This document shows positions 5,901 to 29,700 of a stretch of 64,000 bases of DNA, piece after piece (position 1 is the stretch's first letter; each line of letters starts with the position of its first letter). The stretch spans positions 112,456 to 176,455 of the forward strand of contig CABMGO010000003.1 in NCBI GenBank assembly GCA_902385655.1. Reading direction: 5' to 3'. The translations under genes and the position numbers were made by a program. The notes below the pieces were generated by a model. The model saw nothing but the letters and a program-made list of their open reading frames with translations, ran no database searches and was not told where the DNA came from. The stretch is from an uncultured archaeon (GTDB taxonomy: Archaea; Nanobdellota; Nanobdellia; Pacearchaeales; GW2011-AR1).

Positions 5901-5944
5901 TTCTAGAATATAAATTCTTATAAGCAGTTAATTTATTGGTTTTT

Positions 5945-9769: not shown

Positions 9770-11200
9770 ATGGCTGATATAAAAGAAGTGATTGCTAATG
9801 TTTGTCCGAAAAGATATAAAAGCAGCGAGGGAAAACCAAAATCCGAAGCTTCCTATAAACTTACTAGCCAGTCAGATATAACTCAGCTTGAACCAATTTA
9901 TTACTGGATATTGGATTTTATCGAAGGAGCAGGAATAAATGTTGAAAAGATAACTGATAATTTTGCTGCATCTCCTGGATCTGGGCAATTCCAAGATTTT
10001 TCTCAGAGACAATCTGCTATGATGGCAAAAGCAAGTGAATATATGGGCGGAATTAACCAGGTTACTAAGTCTATTCTGAATTTGATTTATGATTTAAAAG
10101 AGTTTGAAATAAGGCTTGAACAGTATAAGCGAGCAAAGTCGAGTGATAAAAAAGAAATGGAAGAAGGAATGCTCGCGTTGAAACAAATTTGGCTAGATAA
10201 TGTTGATCTCAAAAGAGGAAGAGGAAGTATTCATCAGATGGCAAATGAGATTGGATATACTACTCTTAGAGAAGCTTTTCTGATTGCAAATAATATTGAA
10301 GATATTGAGAAAATGGCATCGAAGGAAGGTGGAAGTGTAATTAACGATTCTGTTAAAAGAGTTTTAACTCCGAGAATTGGCGAATTTAAAATTTGGCAGG
10401 ATATTTCAGAAAAAGAATTGAGAAAAAGATTTGAAATAGAAAAAACGTATTTGAAGTCACAAGTTGAAACTCTTAAATTATATACTCGTTGGGCAAGACC
10501 ATATTTGAAAGCGCTTGATGAAATGAAAATGAAAGGTTTTGATAATGAACCTGCGCTTGTCGCTGCTTTTTCCACGTCTATGTTTCAACTAACTTTAATG
10601 GGAAAGAAAAAACAAAAAGCTCCTCCAAAAGAACATCCGGAGTATACAATGAGAAGAGATTATTACCAGATTTTTATAGTTAATTTTGAATATAGAGGTC
10701 ACGTTGGACAAAAAGTTACACAGAAAGGAGATTATGGCTTTGGATTTGGTGGAAAAGTGGATATGACTTTTGATTGTTATTCATTAAACTCTGAAGAACT
10801 TAAATTAATCAATAAACAACTTGAAGAAGAAGATATATCTGATGGATTAAAAGTTCTTCAGGACAATACTTCTGAGACGCTAAAGCAATTAGAAGACGAC
10901 ATTAATCATTTTATTTATGACGACAAAAAGCCTGAAGAAGAGAAGAAAGCGGAGAAAAAAATGGATGACACAAATCCATTTGGTGCATTATTTTCTTTGT
11001 TTAAGTTTGATTTTTCTTTTAAAAAGGATGATAAAAAGAAAGAGATAAAAGACGCAAAGGACATTCCAAAAGATAATTTTGTCGAGGCAAAGGTTAGGGA
11101 AAAAGCAAAGGAAGAAGCGACTGGTTTCTTATATGCCGTTTATGATGTTTACAAGAAGGCTCACGGAATGGCTTCTTCTCCAGAAAAGTTTGACAATTAA
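9770..11200 (+). CDS. Hypothetical 476-aa protein, helical core with K/E-rich tail
   Basis: Long clean ORF, first gene of a three-gene string. No motif recognised. Confidence 0.6.
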   Translation: MADIKEVIANVCPKRYKSSEGKPKSEASYKLTSQSDITQLEPIYYWILDFIEGAGINVEKITDNFAASPGSGQFQDFSQRQSAMMAKASEYMGGINQVTKSILNLIYDLKEFEIRLEQYKRAKSSDKKEMEEGMLALKQIWLDNVDLKRGRGSIHQMANEIGYTTLREAFLIANNIEDIEKMASKEGGSVINDSVKRVLTPRIGEFKIWQDISEKELRKRFEIEKTYLKSQVETLKLYTRWARPYLKALDEMKMKGFDNEPALVAAFSTSMFQLTLMGKKKQKAPPKEHPEYTMRRDYYQIFIVNFEYRGHVGQKVTQKGDYGFGFGGKVDMTFDCYSLNSEELKLINKQLEEEDISDGLKVLQDNTSETLKQLEDDINHFIYDDKKPEEEKKAEKKMDDTNPFGALFSLFKFDFSFKKDDKKKEIKDAKDIPKDNFVEAKVREKAKEEATGFLYAVYDVYKKAHGMASSPEKFDN

Positions 11201-11230
11201 CCATATAAACTTTGAATTCTCAGGTATTAC

Positions 11231-11722
11231 ATGACATCTAAGATAAAAGAAATAAGAATACTTGAACCGAAAATTAAGGAAGTTAAGAAAGAAAAATCTA
11301 AGGAAGAAATTCCGGAGGAAGAAGAAGCTGAGGAAGTAGATGAAGAAGATTTAGAGGACTCGGTTGAAATTAGTAGAGAAGAAGCGAGAGTTGACTTAAA
11401 AAAACTAATTTTAGAGTCCAAACAAGAAGCTGATAAAAATTTAGAACAAAGAGTTTGGAACTTACCTGTTGCAAAAAAAGAAGAAGATCCTCGTTCAGAA
11501 ACAAAGGACTTTTACGACGGAAAGTCTAATATGTATAGTGATTCTAAAAATTTATACACTGGTTCAGGAGATCAAAGAAATTCGGCATATGATGCTGTTC
11601 CGTTAGGAAATGAAAGAGAAGATCTAGTTAAACAACAGAAATATTTGGTTGAACAGAGAAGAGATGCTAATCCTCTTGAAGGTACTGGCCCTAACAGTAA
11701 GAAAGATATGAGGAGAATGTAA
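11231..11722 (+). CDS. Hypothetical acidic low-complexity protein
   Basis: E/K-rich N-terminal half (EEEEAEEVDEEDLED), located between the two large unknown genes. Confidence 0.5.
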   Translation: MTSKIKEIRILEPKIKEVKKEKSKEEIPEEEEAEEVDEEDLEDSVEISREEARVDLKKLILESKQEADKNLEQRVWNLPVAKKEEDPRSETKDFYDGKSNMYSDSKNLYTGSGDQRNSAYDAVPLGNEREDLVKQQKYLVEQRRDANPLEGTGPNSKKDMRRM

Positions 11723-11776
11723 GAGAAAAAGCTTAAATATCTTCGATATGTTATTATTCAATGATAATAAATAGGG

Positions 11777-13738
11777 GTGAAGAATTATAAGGTGGCAGAC
11801 GATTATAGTTATGAGAGCTTTTATGGTGGAGGAATTTCATCGTTTGAGCCAGAATATGGCAGCGCAAAAAATGGTGTGCCAGGTAATTTTACTGGATATA
11901 GACTAAATGCGTATCGACTGGGTTTTCCAGGATCTGTTCAGACAGCTAATCAAATTACCGAGGCAGTTAATGCTATCAAACAAGGTGTAACTGCTTTTGA
12001 AGTTAGTCTTGGAGATGCAAATACTGCGGAACAAATTCCAAAGCAACATTTTGATGAGATTCGAGCTTTGATGAAAATCACAGGAGTTACGCCGTCTGTT
12101 CATGCCCAATTTAATATTGACCCTGCAGGTTTGGGTGGAGAAAGAGGAACTTACGACGAAGTTACGAGACAAGAAAATGAAAGAAGATTTTTTGAAACTT
12201 TACAGAAAGCGAAAATGCTTAATCCAGACGGAAATACACCGGTAGTATTTCACTCCACAGGTATTGGTACTGGAACAGAATACGGCCCAGGAAAAGAAGG
12301 AGAGGAAAGATTCCAGGCGAAAAAACTCGCTCTGATCGATAAAGAGTCTGGGCAAATTGCGACGGTAATAAAGGAAGATCAGCAATATAATCCCTTTGAC
12401 TTAAAAGAATTAGAAAAAGGTGGAGCAAAACTTTCTTTGAAAACTGAAGAGGATATTCAGAAAAGAGTTTTTTCGGTTAATGAAACGCAATGGGACAAAA
12501 CGATGAATACTCTTAATGTTTACAAAAAAGAAGCAGATGAAATTATGGGCATATTGAGACAACCAGAGGCACAAGAGTTAGGAAAAATAATGGATGGGCT
12601 TACACAAGATAGGTTAAAAAAAATAAATGAAGAGGATCCTGAAACTGCTCAAAGAATAGGTGAACTTTCTATACAGCAGGGAAGAATTGGAAGTTTTTTG
12701 GATAACAATCGTCTGGCTTTTGTAAATGCTTTTGATAATGCATATAAGTATGGCTCGGAGAAACAAAAAGAGGAACTTAGGAATCTTTCTGAGGATTTAA
12801 CTGAAATGGAGAAGGAATCTAGAAATGGAGACCCAGTTGCTCAACAGATTATATTTTCCAGTATGCTTGATAAGGGAATTGCAGAATTGCATAAAATAAC
12901 TTCCGCAAGAGGAGAAAGGAAAGATGGAAAAGTTATTTATGATAATGACTGGGGAGCCCCAAAGCAATTTGTCCCAGTTGAAGAGTTTACTAAAGATAAA
13001 GCGACAGATACTTTTTCAAAGCTTGCATTTAGAAGTTTTGATGAACTTGGAAAAGGAGATGCCTCAAAAGCTCCAGTAATTGCAATAGAGAATATGAATC
13101 AAATGGGTTATGCAAAGCCCGAAGATTTTAAGAAAGTTATTGATAAATCCAGAGACAAGTTTGTAGACATGTTAATTGATAAAAAGGGAATGGAAGAGAA
13201 AGAGGCGAGAGAAGTTGCTGAGAAACTTATTGGAGTTACTTGGGATGTTGGTCACTTAAATATTTTAAAGAAAGAAGGTTTCACTGACAAAGATGTTATT
13301 GAGGCGACGGAAAAAATTGCCCCGTATGTAAAACATGTTCATCTTACTGACAATTTTGGTTATTCGGATTCGCATCTTGCGCCCGGAATGGGAAATGTTC
13401 CATTGAAAGAAATTTTAAAAAATTTGGAAGAAAAAGGAAAACTGAATGAAATTTCAAAGATTGTTGAGGCGCCAGGATTTGTTCAGCACTTTAAAAGATC
13501 CCCACATGGTTTGACTCTTGCAGCTTTGGGAAGTCCTTTGTATGGCCCTAAAATGGCACCATATTGGAATCAAGTTGCAGCTATGGGGAATGGAGGAGGA
13601 TATTTTGGTTCTCCATTGGCAATGATGCCGGAAAAACATTTTTCATTATATGGATCTGGATTTTCAAGTTTGCCCACAGAAGTTGGGGGCCAAATACCTG
13701 GAACAGGCTCGAGGTTTAGTGGAACACCCAATGCTTGA
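11777..13738 (+). CDS. Xylose-isomerase-like (AP endonuclease 2 type) TIM-barrel protein with a large helical insertion
   Basis: C-terminal WDVGHLN...KHVHLTDNFGYSDSHLAPGMGNVP is typical of the sugar-phosphate isomerase/epimerase TIM-barrel fold. N-terminal barrel strands (TAFEVSL, TPSVHAQ, VVFHST) are separated from it by about 250 aa of helical sequence. GTG start. Confidence 0.6.
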   Translation: MKNYKVADDYSYESFYGGGISSFEPEYGSAKNGVPGNFTGYRLNAYRLGFPGSVQTANQITEAVNAIKQGVTAFEVSLGDANTAEQIPKQHFDEIRALMKITGVTPSVHAQFNIDPAGLGGERGTYDEVTRQENERRFFETLQKAKMLNPDGNTPVVFHSTGIGTGTEYGPGKEGEERFQAKKLALIDKESGQIATVIKEDQQYNPFDLKELEKGGAKLSLKTEEDIQKRVFSVNETQWDKTMNTLNVYKKEADEIMGILRQPEAQELGKIMDGLTQDRLKKINEEDPETAQRIGELSIQQGRIGSFLDNNRLAFVNAFDNAYKYGSEKQKEELRNLSEDLTEMEKESRNGDPVAQQIIFSSMLDKGIAELHKITSARGERKDGKVIYDNDWGAPKQFVPVEEFTKDKATDTFSKLAFRSFDELGKGDASKAPVIAIENMNQMGYAKPEDFKKVIDKSRDKFVDMLIDKKGMEEKEAREVAEKLIGVTWDVGHLNILKKEGFTDKDVIEATEKIAPYVKHVHLTDNFGYSDSHLAPGMGNVPLKEILKNLEEKGKLNEISKIVEAPGFVQHFKRSPHGLTLAALGSPLYGPKMAPYWNQVAAMGNGGGYFGSPLAMMPEKHFSLYGSGFSSLPTEVGGQIPGTGSRFSGTPNA

Positions 13739-14833: not shown

Positions 14834-15442
14834 TTACTTCTGATAACTGTCCAATAAAAATTGAGCCATATACTGCTCATTTTCATGTTCTCCAACTAAG
14901 AGAGATTTTATTTTTTGACCATTGCCAGTTTTTTGCATTACTGCTACAGTGCATAATCCTCCCGCGAAAAGAAGATATCCTTCTTGTCTGACCATGGATA
15001 AAATGTTATCTAAATGTCTCTTGAATGTTTGAGGATTTCCAGGGTTAAAAGTGAAACCTAAGTTATTCATACAAAATATTCCGTCGAAATGTTCTGCTGG
15101 AAAAGGTTTTCTGAAACCGTCTCCGAGAATAAATTCTATTTCTGGAACATTAACTCTTTCTCTAGCTATTTCTAATGCCCTAGGATTCATATCAATTCCG
15201 TAAACATTACAAGAAGGGTAAAGAGAAGCAATTTCTTCAGTAGTCATACCAATTGAACAACCAAGATCTAGTATTCTTCCTGAAGGAATTTGAGGTAAAC
15301 TTTCTTCAAAAGTGGATTTCACCCTTCTACCAGTTTCAGTCATTGTCCAATACCCATTTAGAACTTTAATTTCGAATTTAAATGGATCAAATGGAGAACT
15401 CAGTCTTTCCTGATATTTCGAGTATCCGTCTTGAGAAACCAT
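14834..15442 (-). CDS. Class I SAM-dependent methyltransferase
   Basis: Motif I ILDLGCSIGMT, then YGIDMNPRALEIARE. Last gene of the co-directional block. Confidence 0.75.
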   Translation of the reverse strand: MVSQDGYSKYQERLSSPFDPFKFEIKVLNGYWTMTETGRRVKSTFEESLPQIPSGRILDLGCSIGMTTEEIASLYPSCNVYGIDMNPRALEIARERVNVPEIEFILGDGFRKPFPAEHFDGIFCMNNLGFTFNPGNPQTFKRHLDNILSMVRQEGYLLFAGGLCTVAVMQKTGNGQKIKSLLVGEHENEQYMAQFLLDSYQK

Positions 15443-15769
15443 TTATTCCTCCCCTTCAATTAAGGATTCTAATTCAGAAAAAGCTGTCTGATGCATACTA
15501 TGGTTCGGTATAATTGTCAAAAAAGTGTATTTTGAAAAATCAATCTCGGTCTTTGGAGTTTCCTCTATAGGCTGAGGTAATGCAACCGCAATTCCTGATT
15601 TCCCATCAGCAGATTTTCCTGCAAAAATATGTCTTTTCTTTTCTAGATAATGATTAAACAAGACTGCTTTATCTCCACAATATTGGAGGGTTGTAAATCC
15701 GTATTCACGAAAAGGAAAATTTTCTGGAATTTGAACTACGTCTCCATGTTTTAAATCGGTTATAGCCAT
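15443..15769 (-). CDS. Hypothetical protein
   Basis: ORF abutting its neighbours. No motif recognised. Confidence 0.45.
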   Translation of the reverse strand: MAITDLKHGDVVQIPENFPFREYGFTTLQYCGDKAVLFNHYLEKKRHIFAGKSADGKSGIAVALPQPIEETPKTEIDFSKYTFLTIIPNHSMHQTAFSELESLIEGEE

Positions 15770-15771
15770 TG

Positions 15772-15963
15772 TTATTTACTCCTTACGTAAGCCCAAGCAG
15801 CTTCGTATCTCGCAGATTCTTTTGTAATCCAAATATTTTCTAGAAAAAATCTTTTGATTGGATTAATTGAAGTAAGATATTCTTGTGCGAAAGGTTTTCC
15901 TTTTGATTCAAATTCTCTTCTTGAAGAAGCATATTCTGTATGCCAATTATCTAGAAATTTCAT
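15772..15963 (-). CDS. Hypothetical small protein
   Basis: 63-aa ORF with ATGA overlap to the upstream gene. Confidence 0.4.
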   Translation of the reverse strand: MKFLDNWHTEYASSRREFESKGKPFAQEYLTSINPIKRFFLENIWITKESARYEAAWAYVRSK

Positions 15964-16205
15964 TTTGCTCTCCGATTATTTAGACTTAGGTAATATTCTG
16001 CTTCTTTCTTTCCTGGTTCGGACTCTTCATATGCTTTTAGTGCTTCATTAGAATCAAAAGTTCGAGTAATAACTTCTTTTCCATTTACTAAATAAGTTAT
16101 ATGGGGCTGACTGTCATAATATCCGTCTACTAATGACTTGACTAGGGCAGTTCCAGCAGCAGTTATAATCAATCCTGCACCAATTATTTTTGCTAATGTT
16201 TTCAT
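15960..16205 (-). CDS. Hypothetical small protein with N-terminal transmembrane/signal segment
   Basis: MKTLAKIIGAGLIITAAGTALV hydrophobic N-terminus. ATGA overlaps on both sides. Confidence 0.5.
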   Translation of the reverse strand: MKTLAKIIGAGLIITAAGTALVKSLVDGYYDSQPHITYLVNGKEVITRTFDSNEALKAYEESEPGKKEAEYYLSLNNRRAK

Positions 16206-17158
16206 TTCTTACCTTCCTTAGCTTTCGCTTCAGCTTCTTTCTTTTTCTTTTCTGCTTCAGCCTTCTTCTTAGTTTCTTCTACTTTGTACTTTTGTTCAAC
16301 GAGACCGAGTAATCCCGGCATTTCTTCTGCGCCGTTCAATAAGAATTGTCTTGCGCCAGTTAATCCAGTGTATTTCTTTTGAAGCTCAGCAAGCTCAGCA
16401 GAATATTTATCTCTGATTTTACCTTCTTCTAGAGGAGTAATTGGACCTGCACTTAATTTTGCTTCTAATTCTGACTTTGCTTTTTCGTTGATTGCATTTG
16501 CTTTTTCGGATAATTCTTTTTCAGATTTTTCAGAGATTGCTAGAGCATCCTTAATGTAAGTTGTGACTCCATAGTCTACTATTGCTTTCTGTAATTTTCT
16601 TTGAGCTTTTTGAGATCTATATTTTATGAAAGCTTCAGCACCTAAAAGACCTAACCAAAATTTCTTTGAAAAGTCATTTACTCCATCAAATTCTGCATCT
16701 AATTCTTTTTGTGCACCATCTTTTGTTTTCACAGCTTCTACGATTTTCTTTAAGCTGTCTCCAGCACTTACAATTGAATTATATTTTTTATCAGAATCAG
16801 ACAACTCTTTCCCGTCTTCTGCTTTTCTTTTTGCATAAGGCAGATTTATTGCAAGAGGCAAAACCTGTTGGTTACCTACATAACCTACTGCATCTTTAAC
16901 ATTTCCAATTACATAATCTCCAATAGAAGAGTTAACCATACCCTTATAGCCTTCCAAAGCTGCATTCCTCATTTCTGCATCAAAATTAACAAACTCAGGT
17001 CCGAGAAAATCATTCATTAAAGACTCTAATCCCTTTCCAGAACTTGGATCTAAGGAATTAAGTTGCCTTGCTTTTCCTAAAGCGCCTGCTAAAACTTCAG
17101 GTTTCCATCCGTCGCCCTTTTTTGGAGGGACGTATTTTAAATCATATCCGCTCGGCAT
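16202..17158 (-). CDS. Hypothetical helical protein with Lys/Glu/Ala-rich tail
   Basis: 318-aa ORF ending in KKKAEAEKKKKEAEAKAKEGKK. No family recognised. Confidence 0.55.
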   Translation of the reverse strand: MPSGYDLKYVPPKKGDGWKPEVLAGALGKARQLNSLDPSSGKGLESLMNDFLGPEFVNFDAEMRNAALEGYKGMVNSSIGDYVIGNVKDAVGYVGNQQVLPLAINLPYAKRKAEDGKELSDSDKKYNSIVSAGDSLKKIVEAVKTKDGAQKELDAEFDGVNDFSKKFWLGLLGAEAFIKYRSQKAQRKLQKAIVDYGVTTYIKDALAISEKSEKELSEKANAINEKAKSELEAKLSAGPITPLEEGKIRDKYSAELAELQKKYTGLTGARQFLLNGAEEMPGLLGLVEQKYKVEETKKKAEAEKKKKEAEAKAKEGKK

Positions 17159-17348: not shown

Positions 17349-17504
17349 CTATTCACTTTCGTTATCTAAAATATCGATAGTGACCTTCACAAGCATCCCA
17401 TGATTAACTTTGTCTCTAAGAACTGCGGGGATAACAATTACAGCTTGTGCTCCATGCTTTGCTATTTTTTTAGTAATCGTAAACTGCTTATTTGGGAGCG
17501 TCAT
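17349..17504 (-). CDS. AbrB/SpoVT-like small DNA-binding protein (51 aa, absent from the ORF track)
   Basis: My translation is MTLPNKQFTITKKIAKHGAQAVIVIPAVLRDKVNHGMLVKVTIDILDNESE. It is a paralog of the 25315..25530 product (FTITKKIAKHGSQAVIVIP). Its ATG overlaps the stop of 17501..18196 (ATGA). Confidence 0.65.
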   Translation of the reverse strand: MTLPNKQFTITKKIAKHGAQAVIVIPAVLRDKVNHGMLVKVTIDILDNESE

Positions 17505-18196
17505 TTTTTCCTCCGTAGTTCAAATGCATAAAATGTTCTCAAATCATCAACAACATTTTTTCCAATTTCTTGAACAGAGAAACCAGTTTTGTCTGCTCTT
17601 TCAACCATTTCGTCTATTGCTCCAAAACTTGCTTGAGTAACGTAGGCTCTCGCTGTAGGGATATGTTTTAAAACTCTGTCAAGCCCATCAAAAAAACTTT
17701 TCTGAACATGCAAGGCAGGATCCCAAACTGTTAATTCAGCATAATCTCCAACTTCTTTTTTATGGTCCGTAAATGGAGGATTCATTGTAACTACCTCGAA
17801 TCTTTCTTCAGATTTTAATGCAGAAAAAACATCTGATTGTCTTGCTTCGATTATATCTCCAAGGTTATGATATTTTGAATTTTCTAGAGTAGACTTTATC
17901 GCATTAGGATTAATATCTAAAGCAACAACTTTCTTAGCTCCCTTCCAAGCAGAATGAACTGCAATAACTCCACTTCCAGTGCAAACATCACAAACTTCTT
18001 CTCCAGGATTAATAGCATAATTTTTTACAAGTGCTTCAGAATCTTTACTCGGCCAGAAGACTCCTTCATGAACAATAAATAATCTTCCCAGGTAAGGTAG
18101 AGGTTCGCCATAAATACTATTGACGTGCCTAAATTTCTGATGCATACTTCTTTGGATATCATAGACTTTTTTCATTTCTTCAGGAGAGAGTGTCAT
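17501..18196 (-). CDS. HemK/Mtq2-like methyltransferase (NPPF motif; N5-glutamine or N6-adenine class)
   Basis: Motif I VCDVCTGSGVIAV, ALDINPNAI, motif IV VTMNPPFTD. Confidence 0.7.
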   Translation of the reverse strand: MTLSPEEMKKVYDIQRSMHQKFRHVNSIYGEPLPYLGRLFIVHEGVFWPSKDSEALVKNYAINPGEEVCDVCTGSGVIAVHSAWKGAKKVVALDINPNAIKSTLENSKYHNLGDIIEARQSDVFSALKSEERFEVVTMNPPFTDHKKEVGDYAELTVWDPALHVQKSFFDGLDRVLKHIPTARAYVTQASFGAIDEMVERADKTGFSVQEIGKNVVDDLRTFYAFELRRKK

Positions 18197-18624
18197 TGCA
18201 TTTCTCCAAAAATTTGTTTTAATTGAGTGTCAAGTGCTTCGCAATCCAACATATCTTCAAGATGTTCTCCACTAGCTAGCGTTCCAGAAACTTCTACGTC
18301 ATAGGTTGTTCCATTTTCTGTAGCGTGATAACCTCTTTCATTTCTAGAATTATGGTTAGTTAAAACAAATCCCATATTTCCTATTGTTCCAAAATCTTTC
18401 AATCCTTTGGCATTGTATTGACTTTCTAAAAATTGTTTTATTGCATCTTTAACCGCTGATTGTCTAGCGTCTCTTCTTTTGTTTATCTTTTTTGCTGCCT
18501 CTTGCCATTCTTTATCTTTTCCAGGTTCATAATGTGGAAAGAATATATTTTCTTCATACGCAAATCTTCCCCTAACTGTTGCATGTCCATCTTGTTTTTT
18601 TGTTGCACTTAAAGAGTATGTCAT
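18193..18624 (-). CDS. Hypothetical protein
   Basis: 143-aa ORF between two methyltransferase genes. No nuclease motif recognised. Confidence 0.45.
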   Translation of the reverse strand: MTYSLSATKKQDGHATVRGRFAYEENIFFPHYEPGKDKEWQEAAKKINKRRDARQSAVKDAIKQFLESQYNAKGLKDFGTIGNMGFVLTNHNSRNERGYHATENGTTYDVEVSGTLASGEHLEDMLDCEALDTQLKQIFGEMQ

Positions 18625-18625
18625 A

Positions 18626-19336
18626 TTATTTTGTTCTCCCAGCTCTTTCTAATTTTTCTTTTGCAATTTCAAAGTAAATGGGGTTTGATTCATAACCTCT
18701 GTATTCTCCCCCTCTATGAAGAACTTCTTTGCCTAGGCCTGCTGTTCCACTAAACTGTTCAAGAACTCTATTCCCTGGAACAAAATAAGTATCTAAGATA
18801 TCTTTTACTAACTCGGAGGGAAAAGGACAAGGATGCCCTTCTTTCTGTGTATAATAATATTTTCTTCCTGTAGGGAATTTGGTTAATTTCTGATGCATTT
18901 GCCCGAAAACCATCCCGACCATTTCTTGAGTATGACTGTTTTCAGGAGTAGTTGCATTTTCAAGTTCATTTAATGGAACACAACTAAAATCTTCTTCATA
19001 TACTTTGAATGAAAAAGAATCAACTAAGATTAGTCCTGCATTATCGCATAATCTGTCGTACTCTTCAGGATACTCGTGAACTCTCCCCTGTTTTTTTATT
19101 TTTACAGGAAGAAGTATGAGGGCTAGCCCAATTGGTTTTAAGACTCTCTGGGTTTCTTTTATAACTTTATTCATTGAGCTGAGATAGTTTAAATGTGAAG
19201 TTTCATCAACTTGTCCCTCATAGGCTAGGCCAATATTAAACGGTGGATCCATAACTGCTAGATCAATAGATTTTCCATTCAACTCATGCATCTTTTCAGA
19301 AGAACTATTGTATATTGCAAATTTTTGTGCTTCCAT
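18626..19336 (-). CDS. DNA methyltransferase, beta-class N4/N6 (motif IV before motif I)
   Basis: DLAVMDPPFNIG (DPPF) near the N-terminus and FSGTAGLGKEVL (FxGxG) near the C-terminus. Confidence 0.75.
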   Translation of the reverse strand: MEAQKFAIYNSSSEKMHELNGKSIDLAVMDPPFNIGLAYEGQVDETSHLNYLSSMNKVIKETQRVLKPIGLALILLPVKIKKQGRVHEYPEEYDRLCDNAGLILVDSFSFKVYEEDFSCVPLNELENATTPENSHTQEMVGMVFGQMHQKLTKFPTGRKYYYTQKEGHPCPFPSELVKDILDTYFVPGNRVLEQFSGTAGLGKEVLHRGGEYRGYESNPIYFEIAKEKLERAGRTK

Positions 19337-19347
19337 AGTATATTTTC

Positions 19348-20046
19348 CTAAAATTTATATCCCACACCAACAGAACCCCAATTCAAATCTTCTATTTTGG
19401 AGTCTAATGATTTTTGCATTTTCCCGGAAACATCTAAGCTTAAATTTCCTTTAGAAACTCCAAGTTTGATTCCAGCACTTATTTGAGAAAATCCATATTG
19501 ACCATACCAGTTGTTTGCCCAAGCACTATCTAGTGAAGGTGTAAGACTTATTTTTACTTTTCCATCATAAACAGGTACGCTTTTGTTTATTCCAAAAGTT
19601 ACTCGGTCTCCTAGCTTTACAGCGTCGTGTCCAACAAGATGAGCATAGCCCAAATTTGCATTTAACATACCACCATAATTTAGCCCTGCTGTTTGAACTG
19701 CATCAAAGTCTCCGAATCTTCCGTTTGGATAATCCCAAATTTGTGCTCCCACACTTCCAGAAAATTTGTCATTAATTTTTGAGGCATAGGTCACGCAATA
19801 ATCTCTTTCGCTTATTCCTTTCTCTCCAAGAAATTGATTCTCCCAGATTGCAAAATTAAATTTGCCAAAATTTAGAGACACTAAGTCTTGTCTACATTCT
19901 TCTTTTATAGCTGCTCCGACTGGAGAAACAAAGTCTGAAACCAAACTTGTTTCAAAATATGGTTTTGGTATGTCTGCTTTTACACTTCCAATTAATGCTC
20001 CAGCTCCAAGGATAATTCCTGCGACCAAACTTCTTACAGCTTTCAT
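19348..20046 (-). CDS. Secreted beta-barrel-like protein resembling the bacterial TorF/Gcw_chp outer-membrane family
   Basis: Signal peptide MKAVRSLVAGIILGAGALIGSVKA. Alternating-polarity strands, Gly/aromatic rich, C-terminal ...VGVGYKF. Segments VSDFVSPVG, FNFAIWENQ, ERDYCVTYA and IWDYPNG resemble the Gcw_chp pattern. Confidence 0.55.
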   Translation of the reverse strand: MKAVRSLVAGIILGAGALIGSVKADIPKPYFETSLVSDFVSPVGAAIKEECRQDLVSLNFGKFNFAIWENQFLGEKGISERDYCVTYASKINDKFSGSVGAQIWDYPNGRFGDFDAVQTAGLNYGGMLNANLGYAHLVGHDAVKLGDRVTFGINKSVPVYDGKVKISLTPSLDSAWANNWYGQYGFSQISAGIKLGVSKGNLSLDVSGKMQKSLDSKIEDLNWGSVGVGYKF

Positions 20047-21119
20047 TTTTTACCTCCGAATTCATGCCTTACTGCTAAGTATACTGCATGTTCTGGTTTA
20101 CTGTCTTGATTGAAATTTCCTCTATACCAAACTTGTGTAGGGCCGAATTGTCCACATATAGATGCTTCGAGTCCGTAATTATCTTTTACTAGATCCTTAT
20201 GAACTCCAGGAGTAACTAAGACATCCTTAACAAAACCATAATCTCCGACGTTTAGAGCAAACCTTGCGTAGGCAGATTTTCCATCTGTGTATCTTATATC
20301 TCCACCAACGTCTCCAGTTTTTTCTCCGCATTGGGCTTCTGCAGTTAAGAAATTGAAATTTCCAGATAATGCATACGGCATGGTTACATCAGATGAGATT
20401 GTCAAACTGTCAGTAGCCTCGCTAGGATCATTGACAAATCCTGGCATGACGCCGTATGAACCTGCACCATTTAATGCACTAGCTTTTCTTCCAAATCTTA
20501 CTCTAGCTTCGAAGAACCCGTTGTCTCCAGTTTTTATTCCACCATTTGCATTGTAGTTTTCAGTTATTTTTGTTGTTCCGAAAAATTGTGCTTCCCTGTA
20601 TAGCCCTTCATTTTGTCCGCCAGCCATACCTACTTTAGAATTTTTTCCAACTTGAACAAGAGTCATTGCTCTCCAGTCTCCGATAGTGTTAGCAGAAGCT
20701 TGTACTTCTAAGTTGTCTGTTGGTTTTAATCTCATTCTTCCTGCATAGCAGTCTTCTTTTTTTGGATCATCGAATTTGTCAGATTCTACTTCTATAAAAT
20801 TTATACCACTTTTCAAACCAAAAGAGTAATTAGCTATGTCTGAATCTGCTTTGTCATATTGTTTGACTCCAGCGTTTAATCTAAAATTATCATTTTCTGC
20901 ATTGACTCCGTAAGTGTCTCTTCCTTCGGATGTTTGCACTAATGCACGATTCATCCCGTAAGTAGCAATACTTTGAGATATTGGTTTTCCAGGATTTTCT
21001 AAGACCACTCTTTCTTCGAGGTTTAGAGCAGTTCCAGCATTTGCAAATGAAGAGATTAAGCTTGCTCCAGCAATTAAAGCTGTTCCAAATAATCTTCGAA
21101 AACTTGTTTTTATTGCCAT
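20043..21119 (-). CDS. Secreted beta-rich protein, porin-like (tentative)
   Basis: Signal peptide MAIKTSFRRLFGTALIAGASLISSFANA. Gly/Asn/aromatic-rich alternating strands, ends ...AVYLAVRHEFGGKK. ATG at 21119 preferred over TTG at 21143. Confidence 0.5.
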   Translation of the reverse strand: MAIKTSFRRLFGTALIAGASLISSFANAGTALNLEERVVLENPGKPISQSIATYGMNRALVQTSEGRDTYGVNAENDNFRLNAGVKQYDKADSDIANYSFGLKSGINFIEVESDKFDDPKKEDCYAGRMRLKPTDNLEVQASANTIGDWRAMTLVQVGKNSKVGMAGGQNEGLYREAQFFGTTKITENYNANGGIKTGDNGFFEARVRFGRKASALNGAGSYGVMPGFVNDPSEATDSLTISSDVTMPYALSGNFNFLTAEAQCGEKTGDVGGDIRYTDGKSAYARFALNVGDYGFVKDVLVTPGVHKDLVKDNYGLEASICGQFGPTQVWYRGNFNQDSKPEHAVYLAVRHEFGGKK

Positions 21120-21120
21120 A

Positions 21121-21777
21121 TTAGAATGTCCCCCTGACTGCAAGTCTTGCTTCTAATTCTGGAGTGATCTTTCCGTCGGCTGTTCCATTCATTGCCACAT
21201 TAGCTGCAACTTTTAGATTACCGATTCTTTTTCCTAATTCAATTTCTCCATAACACCATGTAGGCCCTGCTTTAGCAGCTAGATTTGCTTCTCCATAATT
21301 TGAAAGATAAAAATTTCCTGGAAGATCTTGTGAGACAAAATATCCTAGTTTGAATACATTGTGTTCTCTTCCATTTTCGTTAAACCATGCAGGCATAGCA
21401 TGTAAACATGCAAATGTTCCGTTTGGTAAACCGTGTAAATTATATTTTAATCCAAGCCCTGCTTCTGTGAATGGTTGATCAGCTTCTACAATTTGTAATC
21501 TTGCAGATAAATTATCGGTTAAATTTCTAGTTAAAGCTGTTTTACTAACATAAGCTCCATGGTCTTGATATTGATCTACAAAAGTATATCCTTGGACTTT
21601 ACCGGGCAAACTGTAAAAGGCATTAAGCTCTGCATAAGCATTTTTTGTATTTCTATCGCTGATTACTCCAATGTCTCCAGAAATAGGAGATGCACTGCCA
21701 TTCAATGTTAATCCAAGAAGCATGGATCCGATTAAGGCCATTTTCTTCCATTTACTTGTTTTTTGCGGTGTTACCAT
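21121..21777 (-). CDS. Secreted beta-barrel-like protein (tentative)
   Basis: Signal-like MALIGSMLLGLTLNGSASP, alternating strands, C-terminal ...EARLAVRGTF (terminal Phe). Confidence 0.5.
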   Translation of the reverse strand: MVTPQKTSKWKKMALIGSMLLGLTLNGSASPISGDIGVISDRNTKNAYAELNAFYSLPGKVQGYTFVDQYQDHGAYVSKTALTRNLTDNLSARLQIVEADQPFTEAGLGLKYNLHGLPNGTFACLHAMPAWFNENGREHNVFKLGYFVSQDLPGNFYLSNYGEANLAAKAGPTWCYGEIELGKRIGNLKVAANVAMNGTADGKITPELEARLAVRGTF

Positions 21778-21967
21778 TTTCTCATTTACTCAAGAATTAG
21801 CAGCTTGAGAAACTGCAACACCTCTCTGTTACTCACACCTGTTGTGTTAAGTATACATAAATGACACATAAAAACCAGATTTAAACTTTTTTATTAAACT
21901 ATATATATTAGTATATTTGTATATATATTTTGAAAAAGTTTATAAATAAGAGATAACTGAGAAAATA

Positions 21968-22867
21968 ATGGTATCCAGAAAATTAGTCAAACAGGGAGCA
22001 GCAACGTTGATGATTAGCTTGCCTAGTAAATGGATAAAGACGAATAAATTGGACAAAGGTGATGAAGTAGAAATGGAAGAAAGAGGAAAAGACTTAGTTA
22101 TCTCTACAGAAAATATGGCGCAGAAGAGCAAAAAAGTTTTGGACATAACAGGATTTTCCCCACTAGTCAATAGAATTCTTATTTTCGAATATGTAAAGGG
22201 CTATGATGAATTGGAAGTTAAGTTTAAAGACAGCCAAGAAATAAAAGATTTTCAGAAGAGAGTGATAAATGAACTGTTAGGTTTTGAGATAGTAAGACAA
22301 ACTCAAACAAGTCTTTTCATAAAGGATATAACTGGCGCGGAAAATCAAGATATAGATGAACTTGTAAAAAGAATATTTTTTATTTTAGATTCTATGGTTG
22401 ATGAACTAATTATTGCCCTAGAGAAAAATCAAGATTTGGATCCAATAATTGACACAGACATCGCTGTAAACAAATTTGTACATTTTTGTTTGAGAATGTT
22501 GAATAAAAAAGGATATAATATTCCTGAAAAAACAATTTCGATTTATTCGATAGTATCCAATTTGGAAGATATAGGGGATTGCTACAAAAGATTAGCGAAG
22601 GATTTCAAAAAAATAAAACCAACCAAAGAATATCTCAATATCCTTCGGGAAATTAAAGGTCAGCTTTCTCTGTTTAAAGATTTGATATATGGGTATGACA
22701 AAAAAAAGCTAATAAAATATGCTCAAGATTACGAAAGAATAAAAGAGAACATAAAGAAAATAAAAAGTAAAACAGTTATTGATTTTCATCTCTTTGAAAC
22801 TAACGAGATCTTAATAGGACTCAATAATCATCTTTTGTCTATGCTGGATGTTGCATCGCTAGTATAA
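21968..22867 (+). CDS. AbrB/SpoVT-domain + PhoU-like domain regulator
   Basis: N-terminal SRKLVKQGAATLMISLPSKWIKTNKLDKGDEVEME (SpoVT/AbrB) followed by helical PhoU-like repeats. Confidence 0.65.
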   Translation: MVSRKLVKQGAATLMISLPSKWIKTNKLDKGDEVEMEERGKDLVISTENMAQKSKKVLDITGFSPLVNRILIFEYVKGYDELEVKFKDSQEIKDFQKRVINELLGFEIVRQTQTSLFIKDITGAENQDIDELVKRIFFILDSMVDELIIALEKNQDLDPIIDTDIAVNKFVHFCLRMLNKKGYNIPEKTISIYSIVSNLEDIGDCYKRLAKDFKKIKPTKEYLNILREIKGQLSLFKDLIYGYDKKKLIKYAQDYERIKENIKKIKSKTVIDFHLFETNEILIGLNNHLLSMLDVASLV

Positions 22868-24633
22868 ATTGCTTTTCTGTAACCAATAAGTTTATCTGAC
22901 CATTCTTTAGAAGGAGATGGCTCGATACTTGAATAGTAACTTGCTGAACCAGTGTTGTAAGACATTCTTTCAGTCCTAATCGGGAAAAAAGTACAACCCT
23001 CGATATTGGTTCCATTTTTAACAAGTACTTGTAAAGTTCTTTCCTCTTCTGATTTAAAATTAGGCACACTAAAACTATGAGAAAGTTGACTTTGTACTGC
23101 ACTGTCATTAGTGTAGCAAGACTTGAAGCCTGGCTCTTCTGGACAAGAAAGTTCAATTTCTATTCCGCTTGGAAAAGCTGCCTGAACCTTATTAGAAATC
23201 GTTTGATTTTCTATTGAAAAATAACCACCCATATATGAATTTAATCTTAGCATGCTCATACTGTATTTTAAAGACGGATTTCCTACTGTAACGGGAACTC
23301 GTTTTCTAGCAATACATTTGCCCCACTTTTCATAATTTATTTCTTGAGTACCGTCTATAACGTTTCCACCAGTTGGGGCATTTTGTGCATAAATTTCAAC
23401 AGCTAAATTGTAATTTCCATCTTGAATTTCTTTAGGAATTTCAAAACTTAGATCATAAGGTAGATTTGGTCCGGCCATGTCATATCCTGTGGGGTCTGCC
23501 ATGATTAAATCAGTGTTAAAAGTTTTGCCTTCCAAACCCTCTACATAAACTTTTCCAGTAAAACCAGATAGACCGCTTTTTAGGACTAAAAGTTGTTGTG
23601 GTGAAAGATAAATTTCATATTTTTTTCCTCTTTCTAATGAGACTGAAGGTTCAACACGAGAAGACACTCCCTCACTTTCTTTTTTAGAACTAAGAGTGTC
23701 ATAGACAACTTCTGAAGGTTTATCCTTTGACCTCATATGAAAGTTTAAGCTAAAAAGAGGGTTTCTTGTTTCAAGTTTGTAACCATCAAAAGTAGGGATA
23801 ATTGGAATTTTAGATTTTTGTTCTACTGCTTGAGTGTCTGGTCTTGCTAAGGGACCATACGCGACTGTGCTTCCTGCAATACCTAATGCAATTAGACCTG
23901 AAGCTGCAACACCCAATGCTCCGCCCCGGACTAGTTTTGACAACTTTGAAGGTTTGCATGCTTTGTCAAAATCTTCGAATAGATCTTCTAACTTGGTGTA
24001 TCTTTCTCCTTGATTAAGTGTCAATGCTTTTCTCATCCATTTGAGATGATTTCTTAATGCAAAACGTTTAGCTAAAGGAATTTGACTTATTGCTTGATCA
24101 ATAGCCACCTTATGTTTTTCTGGAACTACTCTTCCTTTCTCATCAAGAAGACTTTCCCCAGTAAAATTATTTATTGCAGTCCCATTTCTGTAGTCATATA
24201 AAACTGGAGGTTGAGAAGTTAAAGTGTTCAATGCAGTGAATGCTAAACCGTAGGCCTCTGAGTCTTCCCCGTAAGATTTAATTTGGTCTGTAAAAAAACC
24301 ACCTACAAGAGGATCACTTGAAAATTTTGCAAGAGTTGTTTGAACATGATCATTTCTTTCGTCTCCTTTTTTGACAGCACTACCGGTATCAATAGTAAAC
24401 ATTTCTAGCCCGCCGTGATTTCTTCTTACTAATTCATTTGCTGGATGCCTGTCTCTGTGTAATATTCCGTTGCTGTCAAGCAATTTTGCTCCTCTAAACA
24501 TGCACTTCATTCCGTCTACAAAATCTTTTGCTGAAAATGGCCCATATTTTTCTAGCCAGGCTTTTAATGAAACTGCCTCTTTGATTTCTGGAACAACCAA
24601 TGTTTCTTCATTACCTGAAGAGTTATATTCCAA
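22828..24633 (-). CDS. Ser/Thr protein-kinase-like C-lobe + transmembrane helix + large extracellular domain (downstream part of an interrupted gene)
   Basis: Catalytic loop ILHRDRHPANELV, IDTGSA (DFG-like), TM segment GGALGVAASGLIALGIAGSTVAYG. The frame continues upstream through one TAA into 24661..24903. Confidence 0.7.
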   Translation of the reverse strand: MEYNSSGNEETLVVPEIKEAVSLKAWLEKYGPFSAKDFVDGMKCMFRGAKLLDSNGILHRDRHPANELVRRNHGGLEMFTIDTGSAVKKGDERNDHVQTTLAKFSSDPLVGGFFTDQIKSYGEDSEAYGLAFTALNTLTSQPPVLYDYRNGTAINNFTGESLLDEKGRVVPEKHKVAIDQAISQIPLAKRFALRNHLKWMRKALTLNQGERYTKLEDLFEDFDKACKPSKLSKLVRGGALGVAASGLIALGIAGSTVAYGPLARPDTQAVEQKSKIPIIPTFDGYKLETRNPLFSLNFHMRSKDKPSEVVYDTLSSKKESEGVSSRVEPSVSLERGKKYEIYLSPQQLLVLKSGLSGFTGKVYVEGLEGKTFNTDLIMADPTGYDMAGPNLPYDLSFEIPKEIQDGNYNLAVEIYAQNAPTGGNVIDGTQEINYEKWGKCIARKRVPVTVGNPSLKYSMSMLRLNSYMGGYFSIENQTISNKVQAAFPSGIEIELSCPEEPGFKSCYTNDSAVQSQLSHSFSVPNFKSEEERTLQVLVKNGTNIEGCTFFPIRTERMSYNTGSASYYSSIEPSPSKEWSDKLIGYRKAIYTSDATSSIDKR

Positions 24634-28746: not shown

Positions 28747-29700
28747 ATGTTGGAAAGAAAGAAGGTAGGTCTTGCACTTGGGGGTGGCGGTGCGAGAGGA
28801 ATTGCGCATATTGGAGTTCTGAAGGCTTTAGAAAAACATAAAATTCCGATAGATTTTATTTCGGGAACTAGTATCGGTGCTTTGATTGGAGCAATGTACT
28901 CTGCTCAACCAAATGCTAAGAAGTTAGAGAAAGAAATTCTTGAAACTAAGTGGCAAGATTTGTTTGATTATAAAATCCCTAGCGATGGTCTCATAAAAGG
29001 AATGAAGATAGAAAAGTTTCTTGAAGAAAAATTGGACAAATTAAAATTTAATCAATTGAAGATTCCTCTTTTTGTGACTTCCTATGATCTCGAGAAAAAG
29101 CAAGAAGTTATATTTCAAAAGGGAGATGTTGCTGCCGCAATTAGAGCAAGTATATCTATCCCCGGGATATTTGTACCTGCGGAGAACAGTGGGCGTTTGT
29201 TAGTGGATGGAGGGATTGTGGACTTAATTCCTGTGGAAATATTAAGAAAGAAAGGTGCAGAAAGTATTATTGCAGTAAACGCAGATTATATCCGAGAGAA
29301 AAAACCAATATTGGGACAAAATTCTGTTCCTAGTTATGGAAAGAGAAAAATTCCAGGAATAATTCATACACTTACTAAGTCTTTACAAGTAATTGAGGCT
29401 GAAGCTTCGAAAACCGAGTTGAGTATAAGCAGACCAGATCTACTCATAAATCTAAACTTAGAAGAAATTCCGACTCTGGACTTTTCTAACATGAAAAAAT
29501 TGATTAGGAAAGGAGAATTAGCGACCAACAGAACTATAAAACAGTTGAAGAAACTTACAAACCCGAATCCGATAAAAGAAATTTTAGAAGGAATAAGTTC
29601 AATTCCACTTGTTAAAGGAGTTGAGAAAAATATTGGTAAAGTTGCGGAAGATATCAGAGAGCTTGCGGTTGGAAAAAGCTCACCAGCCGATAAAAGTTAA
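28747..29700 (+). CDS. Patatin-like phospholipase
   Basis: GLALGGGGARGIAHIGVL (oxyanion GGGxRG), GTSIGA (GxSxG), VDGG (catalytic Asp). Confidence 0.85.
   Translation: MLERKKVGLALGGGGARGIAHIGVLKALEKHKIPIDFISGTSIGALIGAMYSAQPNAKKLEKEILETKWQDLFDYKIPSDGLIKGMKIEKFLEEKLDKLKFNQLKIPLFVTSYDLEKKQEVIFQKGDVAAAIRASISIPGIFVPAENSGRLLVDGGIVDLIPVEILRKKGAESIIAVNADYIREKKPILGQNSVPSYGKRKIPGIIHTLTKSLQVIEAEASKTELSISRPDLLINLNLEEIPTLDFSNMKKLIRKGELATNRTIKQLKKLTNPNPIKEILEGISSIPLVKGVEKNIGKVAEDIRELAVGKSSPADKS

Follow-up and report, generated by a model that had tools for sequence, protein, structure and literature searches.

The window analysed here is a stretch of 64,000 nucleotides (nt) from an uncultured archaeon (contig CABMGO010000003.1, positions 112,456 to 176,455), and the subject of this report is a cluster of three consecutive minus-strand genes within it, here called genes 1 to 3. 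Their products, of 218, 358 and 232 amino acids (aa), have the features of exported proteins rich in beta strands, and structure prediction indicates that the last of them is very probably a transmembrane barrel of the type found among bacterial outer-membrane proteins (OMPs).

21121..21777, minus strand: gene 1, exported beta-rich protein of 218 aa, from the list of open reading frames (ORFs)
20043..21119, minus strand: gene 2, exported beta-rich protein of 358 aa, with ATG at 21119
19348..20046, minus strand: gene 3, exported protein of 232 aa, predicted to form a 12-stranded OMP-like transmembrane beta-barrel

Only one base separates genes 1 and 2, genes 2 and 3 overlap by 4 nt (ATGA) and a gene for an N6/N4 DNA methylase (18626-19336) begins 11 nt past gene 3. 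Given this tight packing and the closeness of the methylase gene, the trio looks like one transcription unit read from the AT-rich region at 21778-21967. The mechanical ORF list extends gene 2 to a TTG at 21143 (20043-21143), but the start is most plausibly the ATG at 21119 (MAIKTSFRR...), which matches NCBI entry VVB79563 and gives a proper signal peptide. For gene 1, NCBI entry VVB79565 (200 aa) starts at an internal Met, with loss of the signal peptide, whereas the upstream ATG at 21777 is backed by an N-terminal KTSxWK segment conserved in the homologue P0008.

As read from the sequence, the signal peptides are MVTPQKTSKWKKMALIGSMLLGLTLNGSA for gene 1 (cleaved before S), MAIKTSFRRLFGTALIAGASLISSFANA for gene 2 (before G) and MKAVRSLVAGIILGAGALIGSVKA for gene 3 (before D). 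In all of them, a positively charged n-region precedes a hydrophobic h-region free of charges and a site of the small-x-small type (GSA, ANA and VKA, respectively), no later hydrophobic helix is present in any of the three proteins, and no other protein encoded in the window combines a signal peptide with the absence of a later helix. These features bear out the Sec-type signal peptides proposed in the initial annotation. The alternating beta-strand character that it described is also evident, with the three proteins ranking first to third among the 64 ORFs of the window in the ratio of the beta (180 degrees) to the helical (100 degrees) amphipathic moment. The C-termini read ...RLAVRGTF (gene 1), ...FGGKK (gene 2) and ...WGSVGVGYKF (gene 3), and the terminal Phe noted in the 218- and 232-aa proteins is conserved in their homologues.

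Homologues of all three proteins are found with high significance (E 1e-50 to 1e-104) in independent metagenomes, and the three are therefore real genes. A word-indexed search of 5.8 billion proteins identified six members of the family of the 232-aa protein, two of the 218-aa and three of the 358-aa protein family, the window's own included. Scans of the three proteins against Pfam, NCBIfam and PHROGs gave nothing usable, and sequence-profile searches of the PDB with all three family alignments nothing meaningful. That the trio are paralogues was considered and rejected, as pairwise BLASTP and hhalign comparisons among the families, and against a family of 132 relatives of the 232-aa protein, revealed no relationship; the sole hint is a marginal match of the 358-family hidden Markov model (HMM) to two members of the 232 family (E about 1e-3). 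Judged by sequence, the three proteins belong to separate, unrelated families assembled in a modular cassette.

Predicted fold of the 232-aa protein and its companions

With a shallow, six-sequence alignment as input, AlphaFold2 (AF2) predicted that in the 232-aa protein a signal-peptide helix leads into 12 long beta strands in hairpins, with a mean predicted local distance difference test score (pLDDT) of 80.4 and a predicted template-modelling score (pTM) of 0.71. Four of the five models have pLDDT values of 77-80 and one is poor (49.3). A Foldseek search of the PDB with this model returned 137 matches at E<=1e-3, of which the top 50 are all bacterial outer-membrane barrels. Template-modelling (TM) scores, normalised to query and target, are 0.56/0.63 for NanC, 0.57/0.65 for PcoB, 0.55/0.60 for VhGalP and 0.55/0.52 for Tsx, and further matches include FapF (among the best fits), OmpG, LpxR and autotransporter beta-domains. 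The BFVD library of viral structures likewise yielded only OMP-like barrels, and no soluble barrel or sandwich is present among the top 50 matches in either library. As the matches to closed barrels are full-length, with target TM scores of 0.63-0.65 for NanC and PcoB, the predicted barrel is presumably also closed.

The sequence has the corresponding architecture. The predicted strands are each 10-14 residues long and their connections alternate in length (14, 2, 7, 4, 9, 3, 7, 3, 7, 2 and 7 residues), the classic barrel layout with loops out and turns in. Averaged over the 132 relatives, all 13 strand segments have a hydrophobic and a polar face, with mean Kyte-Doolittle values of +1.31 and -1.11, respectively. 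The C-terminus conforms to the motif Y-G-G-[VILF]-[SG]-[LVAI]-[GS]-[YVIL]-x-F, with alternating hydrophobic residues at -3, -5 and -7, which is the pattern of the bacterial OMP beta-signal; the terminal residue is F in 90 of the 132 and L, Y or W in 15 more. A hydrophobic, signal-peptide-like N-terminus is present in 116. When the cassette is compared with the defining features of bacterial-type outer-membrane beta-barrels, signal peptides are present in all three proteins, dyad-repeat strands with alternating loops in the 232 family, a closed, even-numbered antiparallel barrel is predicted for the 232-aa protein only, and a C-terminal beta-signal is found in the 232 and 218 families and is absent from the 358 family. 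Taken together, the confident AF2 model, Foldseek matches exclusively to outer-membrane barrels and the OMP-like sequence architecture argue strongly that the 232-aa protein is a genuine archaeal-encoded transmembrane barrel of the OMP type.

The 218-aa protein has homologues in P0008 (53 % identity, E 2e-67), its sole database homologue, and at loci L010 and L011 (6261-6971). It has the highest ratio of beta to helical amphipathicity of the 64 ORFs and, counted by eye, about twelve amphipathic segments; the window and L011 proteins end in RLAVRGTF and P0008 in ARYNF, so that a terminal F is common to all three. No match was found to it in Pfam, NCBIfam or the PDB sequences. Homologues of the 358-aa protein are P0010, P0011 and an ORF at L006 (8913-10004), and this family ends in FGGK(K), with no terminal aromatic residue. 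From three sequences, AF2 modelled the 358-aa protein as an all-beta meander of hairpins with about 20 strands, at low confidence (pLDDT 41, pTM 0.33). The best Foldseek matches to this model are barrels of 18-19 strands (OprD/Occ, VDAC and Tom40) and, with TM about 0.3 on a model of pLDDT 41, they are not trusted as evidence of the fold. The products of genes 1 and 2 are probably barrels as well, unrelated to the others, with roughly 12 strands for gene 1 and 18-20 for gene 2. The OMP-type barrels that the initial annotation proposed for all three proteins are therefore supported by AF2, Foldseek and sequence for the 232-aa protein, with its confident 12-stranded model, whereas the low-confidence all-beta model of the 358-aa protein is suggestive and the case for the 218-aa protein is made from sequence features.

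Distribution of the 232 family

When 1.84 billion cluster representatives were searched exhaustively with a HMMER profile, 213 members of the 232 family were identified at E<=1e-3, of which 120 are at E<=1e-10 and 22 at E<=1e-30. Carriers in GTDB, scanned with narrow patterns, are 'uncultured archaeon LaPlata_bin-1599', 'archaeon ELA258' and 'Candidatus Woesearchaeota archaeon', and one further cluster member is named Ca. Woesearchaeota. A metagenome scan with a narrower alignment of the family identified 7 loci, and a scan of viral contigs none. The 232-aa protein has no Pfam match at E<=1 and no NCBIfam match, and the consensus of the 132 relatives matches neither Gcw_chp at E<=10 nor any other OMP family in Pfam; the resemblance to TorF/Gcw_chp (PF09694) suggested in the initial annotation was consequently not upheld. 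Scanned singly, three of the 132 have sub-threshold matches to Gcw_chp (best E 3.4e-4) and three to Autotransporter, with single sub-threshold matches to the TonB-receptor barrel, OMP_b-brl, Porin_4, DUF481, Phage_OMP, YaiO and MipA. Nine bacterial OMP families are touched in this way, against two unrelated families (DUF6805 and Melibiase_2), and these scattered matches are read as a faint echo of bacterial OMP sequence space, not as membership of any of these families.

The taxonomic labels of the family come from the few named metagenome-assembled genomes and from neighbouring genes, with about 20 distinct contexts covered among the 213 representatives; the genomic sequence read was the 64-kb window and, for relatives, pieces of 20 kb. 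Contexts with informative neighbours or base composition are:

L001, GC about 0.33: aIF5B, archaeal CCA-adding enzyme, TrmB
L023, GC about 0.33: TrmB, several archaeal type-IV-pilin-like genes in a row, T2SSE ATPase
L025/L026, GC 0.60: family-B DNA polymerase (PolB), ABCE1/RLI, archaellin, Trm61, TrmB
L027, L019 and L024, GC 0.31-0.39: low GC, with two TrmB genes in L027
L021/L022 (encoding P0091), GC 0.67-0.71: bacterial-type neighbours

The last of these stands apart from the rest, which are either clearly archaeal or low in GC and Woesearchaeota-like. At L021/L022 the neighbouring genes encode a CckA/EspA-like hybrid histidine kinase, a YheT-type hydrolase and a trp operon with GGAGG ribosome-binding sites, the TrpB of which is about 60 % identical to diverse bacterial TrpBs. 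P0091 itself (L021 3336-4097) has a twin-arginine-like signal peptide with a lipobox (RRRRRHH...ILASC) and is low in Lys. A haloarchaeal origin was rejected, as the isoelectric points of the neighbours are non-acidic, the Shine-Dalgarno motifs are GGAGG and the best matches are of bacterial type. The host is most likely a high-GC bacterium, the only probable bacterial carrier among the ~20 distinct contexts, and with this contig, which bears on the direction of transfer, the 232 family has crossed the domain boundary at least once. The observed diversity of the family sits in archaea, on contigs ranging from 29 % to 60 % GC, and this argues against recent transfer into the organism of the window. 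From these contexts and the predicted fold, the 232 family appears to be an undescribed, mostly archaeal family of OMP-like barrels, present in DPANN-type and other archaea.

Several members have additional features. Lipobox-like signal peptides (...[GA]-C-[SG]-S...) occur in 14 of the 132, including P0017, P0023, P0029, P0035, P0056, P0058, P0064 and P0074, as detected with a loose regular expression so that some may be spurious; they suggest that there are lipid-anchored barrels in probably archaeal organisms. P0042 (L024 3280-5028) and P0090, both of ~570-580 aa, have a signal peptide, a helix-rich N-terminal domain of ~350 aa with no Pfam match and a C-terminal barrel. At L023, the barrel gene is followed immediately downstream by five small genes (10806-13490), the products of which have signal peptides of archaeal class III (type-IV-pilin-like), and, past two unrelated minus-strand genes, there is a gene for a T2SSE/PilB-type ATPase (14992-16518); this may be a locus for surface filaments with a link to the barrel. 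At L019 (1-4242; GCA_964448605.1, low GC), ~6 kb from the barrel gene, is a gene for a surface protein of >2,290 aa in which PQQ/beta-propeller repeats are combined with M14 and C25 peptidase domains and a faint match to dockerin.

Genomic context of the cassette

Among the genes of the window are those for MCM, aRF1, Rad50/Mre11 and Kae1, besides others that are less diagnostic of domain, and archaeal genes lie on both sides of the cluster, as the initial annotation had stated. The proteins of the window are deposited as 'uncultured archaeon', on a contig of 242,242 nt, its GC content is about 0.34 with 0.37 in the cluster, and the strand skew of the cluster is unremarkable. Scans of the window for tRNA genes and Rfam families found none. 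The features adjoining the cassette are:

22828..24633, minus strand: Ser/Thr-kinase-like membrane-spanning protein of 601 aa (Pkinase E 1.2e-6, below the cut-off)
21968..22867, plus strand: divergent gene for an AbrB/SpoVT (MazE_antitoxin)-PhoU-like regulator (Pfam PF04014, 29.3 bits; PhoU, 21.6 bits)
21778..21967, no strand assigned: AT-rich intergenic region separating the cassette from the divergent regulator gene, with presumed promoters and operator
17501..19336, minus strand: downstream co-oriented genes for the N6/N4 DNA methylase, a 143-aa ORF and an MTS-type methyltransferase (Pfam)

In the regulator, the PF04014 match is above the cut-off and the PhoU match just below it. A perfect inverted repeat of 10 nt, TAAACTTTTT/AAAAAGTTTA, lies in the divergent promoter region at 21882-21891 and 21933-21942; it may be an operator, although in such a low-complexity region it could also have arisen by chance. 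The kinase-like protein has a transmembrane segment, LVRGGALGVAASGLIALGIAGSTVAYG, and a large extracytoplasmic C-terminal part. The methylase, 143-aa ORF and methyltransferase genes are probably co-transcribed with the cassette, and no functional link between them is claimed.

Local HMMs identified the cassette families in the following combinations; the contig from ENA is independent and has the same trio, with proteins of 237, 362 and 236 aa:

Window and ENA contig: families 218, 358 and 232
L010 and L011: families 218 and 358
L006 and L009: families 358 and 232
L005: two 232-family paralogues, with a 160-aa non-secreted protein between them
L001-4, L007, L008 and L012-18: family 232 alone

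Homologues of the AbrB/PhoU-like regulator are neighbours at L005, L006, L009, L011 and L017; clear Pkinase neighbours are present at L009, L011 and L017, and kinase-like ORFs at L006 and L008. The kinase-like and regulator genes together flank the cassette in the window and at L005, L006, L009, L011 and L017, with the kinase alone at L008, and methyltransferase genes similar to those downstream of gene 3 follow the cassette at L009 and L010. A chimeric assembly or contamination was considered and rejected, since the cassette and its neighbours are syntenic across independent assemblies of related low-GC archaea. The absence of a chimeric join, as argued in the initial annotation from the flanking genes, is thus confirmed by the recurrence of the kinase, regulator and methyltransferase genes.

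At other loci, the barrel gene has a different companion. A divergent gene for a TrmB-family regulator lies directly upstream of it at L001-4, L007, L012 and L027, and one to three small ORFs away on the P0006 contig and at L023 and L025/L026. The positions of TrmB genes beside the barrel gene are:

L001: 9135-9866
L007: 9047-9778
L023: 7953-8684
L025: 8401-9126
L027: 6901-7662

The TrmB loci are without the kinase/PhoU-like pair, which suggests that there are two alternative regulatory contexts for the 232 family. With TrmB of the sugar type, PhoU-like regulators and an envelope-spanning kinase as neighbours, the synteny fits, and suggests, a nutrient or envelope regulon.

Elsewhere in the window, a plus-strand gene at 28747-29700 encodes a patatin-like phospholipase (PF01734, E 4e-37), which might be relevant to the scavenging of lipids by an organism of the DPANN type. 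ORFs with no Pfam match are located at 16202-17158 (minus strand, 318 aa), 5936-7147 (plus strand, 403 aa) and 9770-11200 (plus strand, 476 aa); the 318-aa product has a Lys/Glu/Ala-rich, low-complexity C-terminal tail.

Proposed membrane location and function, and relation to known systems

We propose that the cassette belongs to a low-GC, Woesearchaeota-like DPANN archaeon and encodes three envelope proteins that are rich in beta strands and exported by the Sec route. The 232-aa product, once its signal peptide had been cleaved, would fold into a closed, 12-stranded antiparallel barrel resembling a small bacterial outer-membrane channel, with a hydrophobic belt towards the lipid, a lumen that is polar, turns that are short on one side and loops that are long on the other, and an aromatic motif at the C-terminus. 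The barrels would be embedded in a lipid layer external to the cytoplasmic membrane, most parsimoniously the archaeon's own outer membrane, where they would act as passive, solute-selective channels for scavenged nutrients (sugars, nucleosides or phosphate). Archaea are not known to have BamA, and insertion would therefore have to be spontaneous or brought about by an unknown factor. Expression would probably be controlled here by the AbrB/PhoU-like regulator and the membrane Ser/Thr kinase and, at other loci, by the divergent TrmB. A role as solute channels is probable by analogy, in that the closest structural analogues (NanC/KdgM-type and Tsx) are substrate-specific sugar or nucleoside channels. 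The cell's own outer layer is favoured as the site by the double membranes documented in several archaea, the lipobox-like signal peptides of ~10 % of the family, which would tether these members to the producer, and the metabolic, not contact-dependent, nature of the regulators; double membranes have been described in Ignicoccus, Altiarchaeum, Methanomassiliicoccus and ARMAN-type DPANN (review PMC6098224). We regard the explanation as a whole as evenly poised between right and wrong, and the placement in the cell's own outer layer, taken by itself, as tentative. The wider proposition, that some DPANN (Woesearchaeota-like) and other archaea have a genuine outer membrane with their own bacterial-style barrel porins, which have a beta-signal-like C-terminus and are assembled without Omp85/BamA, is doubtful.

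A number of points weigh against this explanation. We know of no demonstration of an outer membrane in Woesearchaeota, nor of any barrel insertase in archaea, and a location in the cell's own membrane leaves unexplained why a bacterial-type beta-signal should be conserved where there is no beta-barrel assembly machinery (BAM). All of the structural statements are predictions from shallow alignments, with closure of the barrel deduced from TM matches; the 358-aa model is unreliable (pLDDT 41), the case for a 218-aa barrel comes from sequence features only, and neither protein is detectably related to the 232 family. With 213 clusters among 1.84 billion, and only three species in the GTDB scan with narrow patterns, the 232 family is rare, which is odd for a core envelope component. 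The channel function and regulatory links are argued from analogy and gene neighbourhood.

If not in the cell's own envelope, the barrels could be effectors that insert into the membrane of a partner, either the outer membrane of a Gram-negative bacterium, by way of that partner's BAM, or an archaeal host at a contact site, and so permit metabolite theft. DPANN archaea are mostly ectosymbionts, and for Woesearchaeota with lytic murein transglycosylases, bacteria have been proposed as hosts or prey (PMC9723730; PMC8204110). A family-wide bacterial-type beta-signal is most easily explained if it is read by BAM or a machine resembling SAM (sorting and assembly machinery), phages also encode OMP-like barrels for host outer membranes (as in the BFVD matches and the weak Phage_OMP match), and patchy spread, strong diversification and several unrelated barrel families per cassette resemble host-interaction gene sets. 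There is, however, no evident route of delivery into a partner's periplasm, no secretion-system genes are next to the cassette, and the neighbouring regulators (TrmB, PhoU-like) are of metabolite- or envelope-sensing and not contact-dependent types. The lipobox-like members, about 10 % of the family, would be tethered to their producer, and, as far as is known, the cultivated DPANN all have archaeal hosts, which lack outer membranes. On this balance, insertion into a partner is unlikely but has to be taken seriously.

It is quite improbable that the proteins are instead soluble, secreted or S-layer-associated beta proteins (sandwiches, jelly-rolls or lipid-carrier barrels), with the OMP-like model being an AlphaFold artefact of dyad repeats. 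The good model was obtained from six sequences, one of its five versions has a pLDDT of 49.3, the 358-aa model is of low confidence and no sequence-level match exists to any solved structure, but four of the five models converge, with pLDDT 77-80 and a pTM of 0.71, and soluble folds are missing from the top 50 Foldseek matches in both libraries. Twelve strands, a hydrophobic face conserved in 132 divergent members and the terminal aromatic motif are hard to reconcile with a soluble protein, and scattered members make contact with nine bacterial OMP families in Pfam, all sub-threshold, against two unrelated ones. Least probable of all, and very unlikely, is that a known family of bacterial OMPs (TorF/Gcw_chp or KdgM-like) was recently acquired from a bacterial neighbour, with no special archaeal biology involved, or that there is bacterial contamination or a chimeric assembly. 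Such an origin would accommodate the three weak Gcw_chp matches (best E 3.4e-4 among the 132), the other contacts with Autotransporter, Porin_4, DUF481, MipA and YaiO, and the location of P0091 on a contig of 71 % GC, next to genes of bacterial type and with Shine-Dalgarno motifs. Against it, the window protein and the family consensus match no OMP family in Pfam or NCBIfam, neither the GC content (0.37 vs 0.34) nor the strand skew of the cluster is unusual, and the cassette is syntenic with archaeal neighbours in many independent assemblies. Archaeal contigs of 29 % to 60 % GC carry the family, which implies that it has long resided and diversified in archaea, and only one of about 20 distinct contexts looks bacterial. 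Recent transfer from a bacterial host, one of the explanations offered in the initial annotation, is therefore not supported, there being no bacterial family at curated thresholds, contexts that are nearly all archaeal and no anomaly in GC.

To our knowledge, textbooks place transmembrane beta-barrels only in outer membranes, those of diderm bacteria, mitochondria and plastids, and make them dependent on Omp85-family insertases. If the barrels prove to sit in an archaeal outer membrane, this restriction would be contradicted; the 232 family would be the first transmembrane beta-barrel family native to Archaea, with either an ancient shared origin or a convergent reinvention of the OMP, and with BAM-independent insertion. 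In the searchable literature we found no description of transmembrane beta-barrel families or porins in Woesearchaeota or other DPANN archaea; the 'pore-forming toxins' of Woesearchaeota were considered as a prior description and rejected, as they are TlyC haemolysins and unrelated (PMC9723730). A mostly archaeal OMP-like family with no detectable bacterial parent would provide a molecular handle on DPANN envelopes and host interfaces, a natural test case for BAM-independent barrel insertion or the hijacking of a partner's BAM, and a set of marker genes with which diderm or bacteria-associated archaea could be found in metagenomes. Barrels of this fold are known; what is new is the 232 family, its mainly archaeal distribution and the absence of a known insertase.

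Among known systems, the small 12-stranded channels (NanC 2wjr, VhGalP 8xua, Tsx 1tlw and PcoB 7pge) are closest, with the best whole-chain TM scores (0.55-0.57 to the query, 0.52-0.65 to the target). Like them, the 232-aa protein has a signal peptide, ~205 mature residues, alternating loops and turns, a hydrophobic belt and a C-terminal aromatic residue; unlike them, it has no Pfam or PDB-sequence match, and identities in the structural alignments are 7-11 %. With no Pfam match it does not belong to the KdgM/NanC porins by sequence, and the likeness is structural only. In contrast to the bacteria with NanC/Tsx-type channels, the archaea with the 232 family have, as far as we know, neither lipopolysaccharide nor BamA nor a demonstrated outer membrane. 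TorF/Gcw_chp (PF09694) proteins are similar in length and are also predicted beta-barrels, and Gcw_chp ties with Autotransporter as the Pfam family most often matched (three of 132 relatives each) with the better best E (3.4e-4), but the 232-aa protein is not a member. The type Va autotransporter beta-domains (EspP, Hbp, BrkA and AaaA) are also 12-stranded, with query-normalised TM scores of 0.39-0.56 to the 232-aa model; three relatives match PF03797 weakly, and P0042 and P0090 have a passenger-like layout. The 232-aa protein differs in having no passenger, linker helix or PF03797 match and is not an autotransporter. In length and with its ~20-strand meander, the 358-aa protein is comparable to the 18-stranded OprD/Occ porins and to VDAC/Tom40, at TM about 0.3 and pLDDT 41, and it differs from OMP-type C-termini in ending in FGGKK, with no terminal aromatic residue. 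The Ihomp1 pore protein of Ignicoccus hospitalis shares with the 232 family a proposed place in an archaeal outer membrane, and it is small and alpha-helical. A possible distal, porin-like relative of PopA has been noted, in one line, in Altiarchaeales (PMC12228718); PopA-type proteins form oligomeric, lipid-trapping, porin-like assemblies, whereas the 232 family has a predicted monomeric design of 12 strands and occurs in different lineages.

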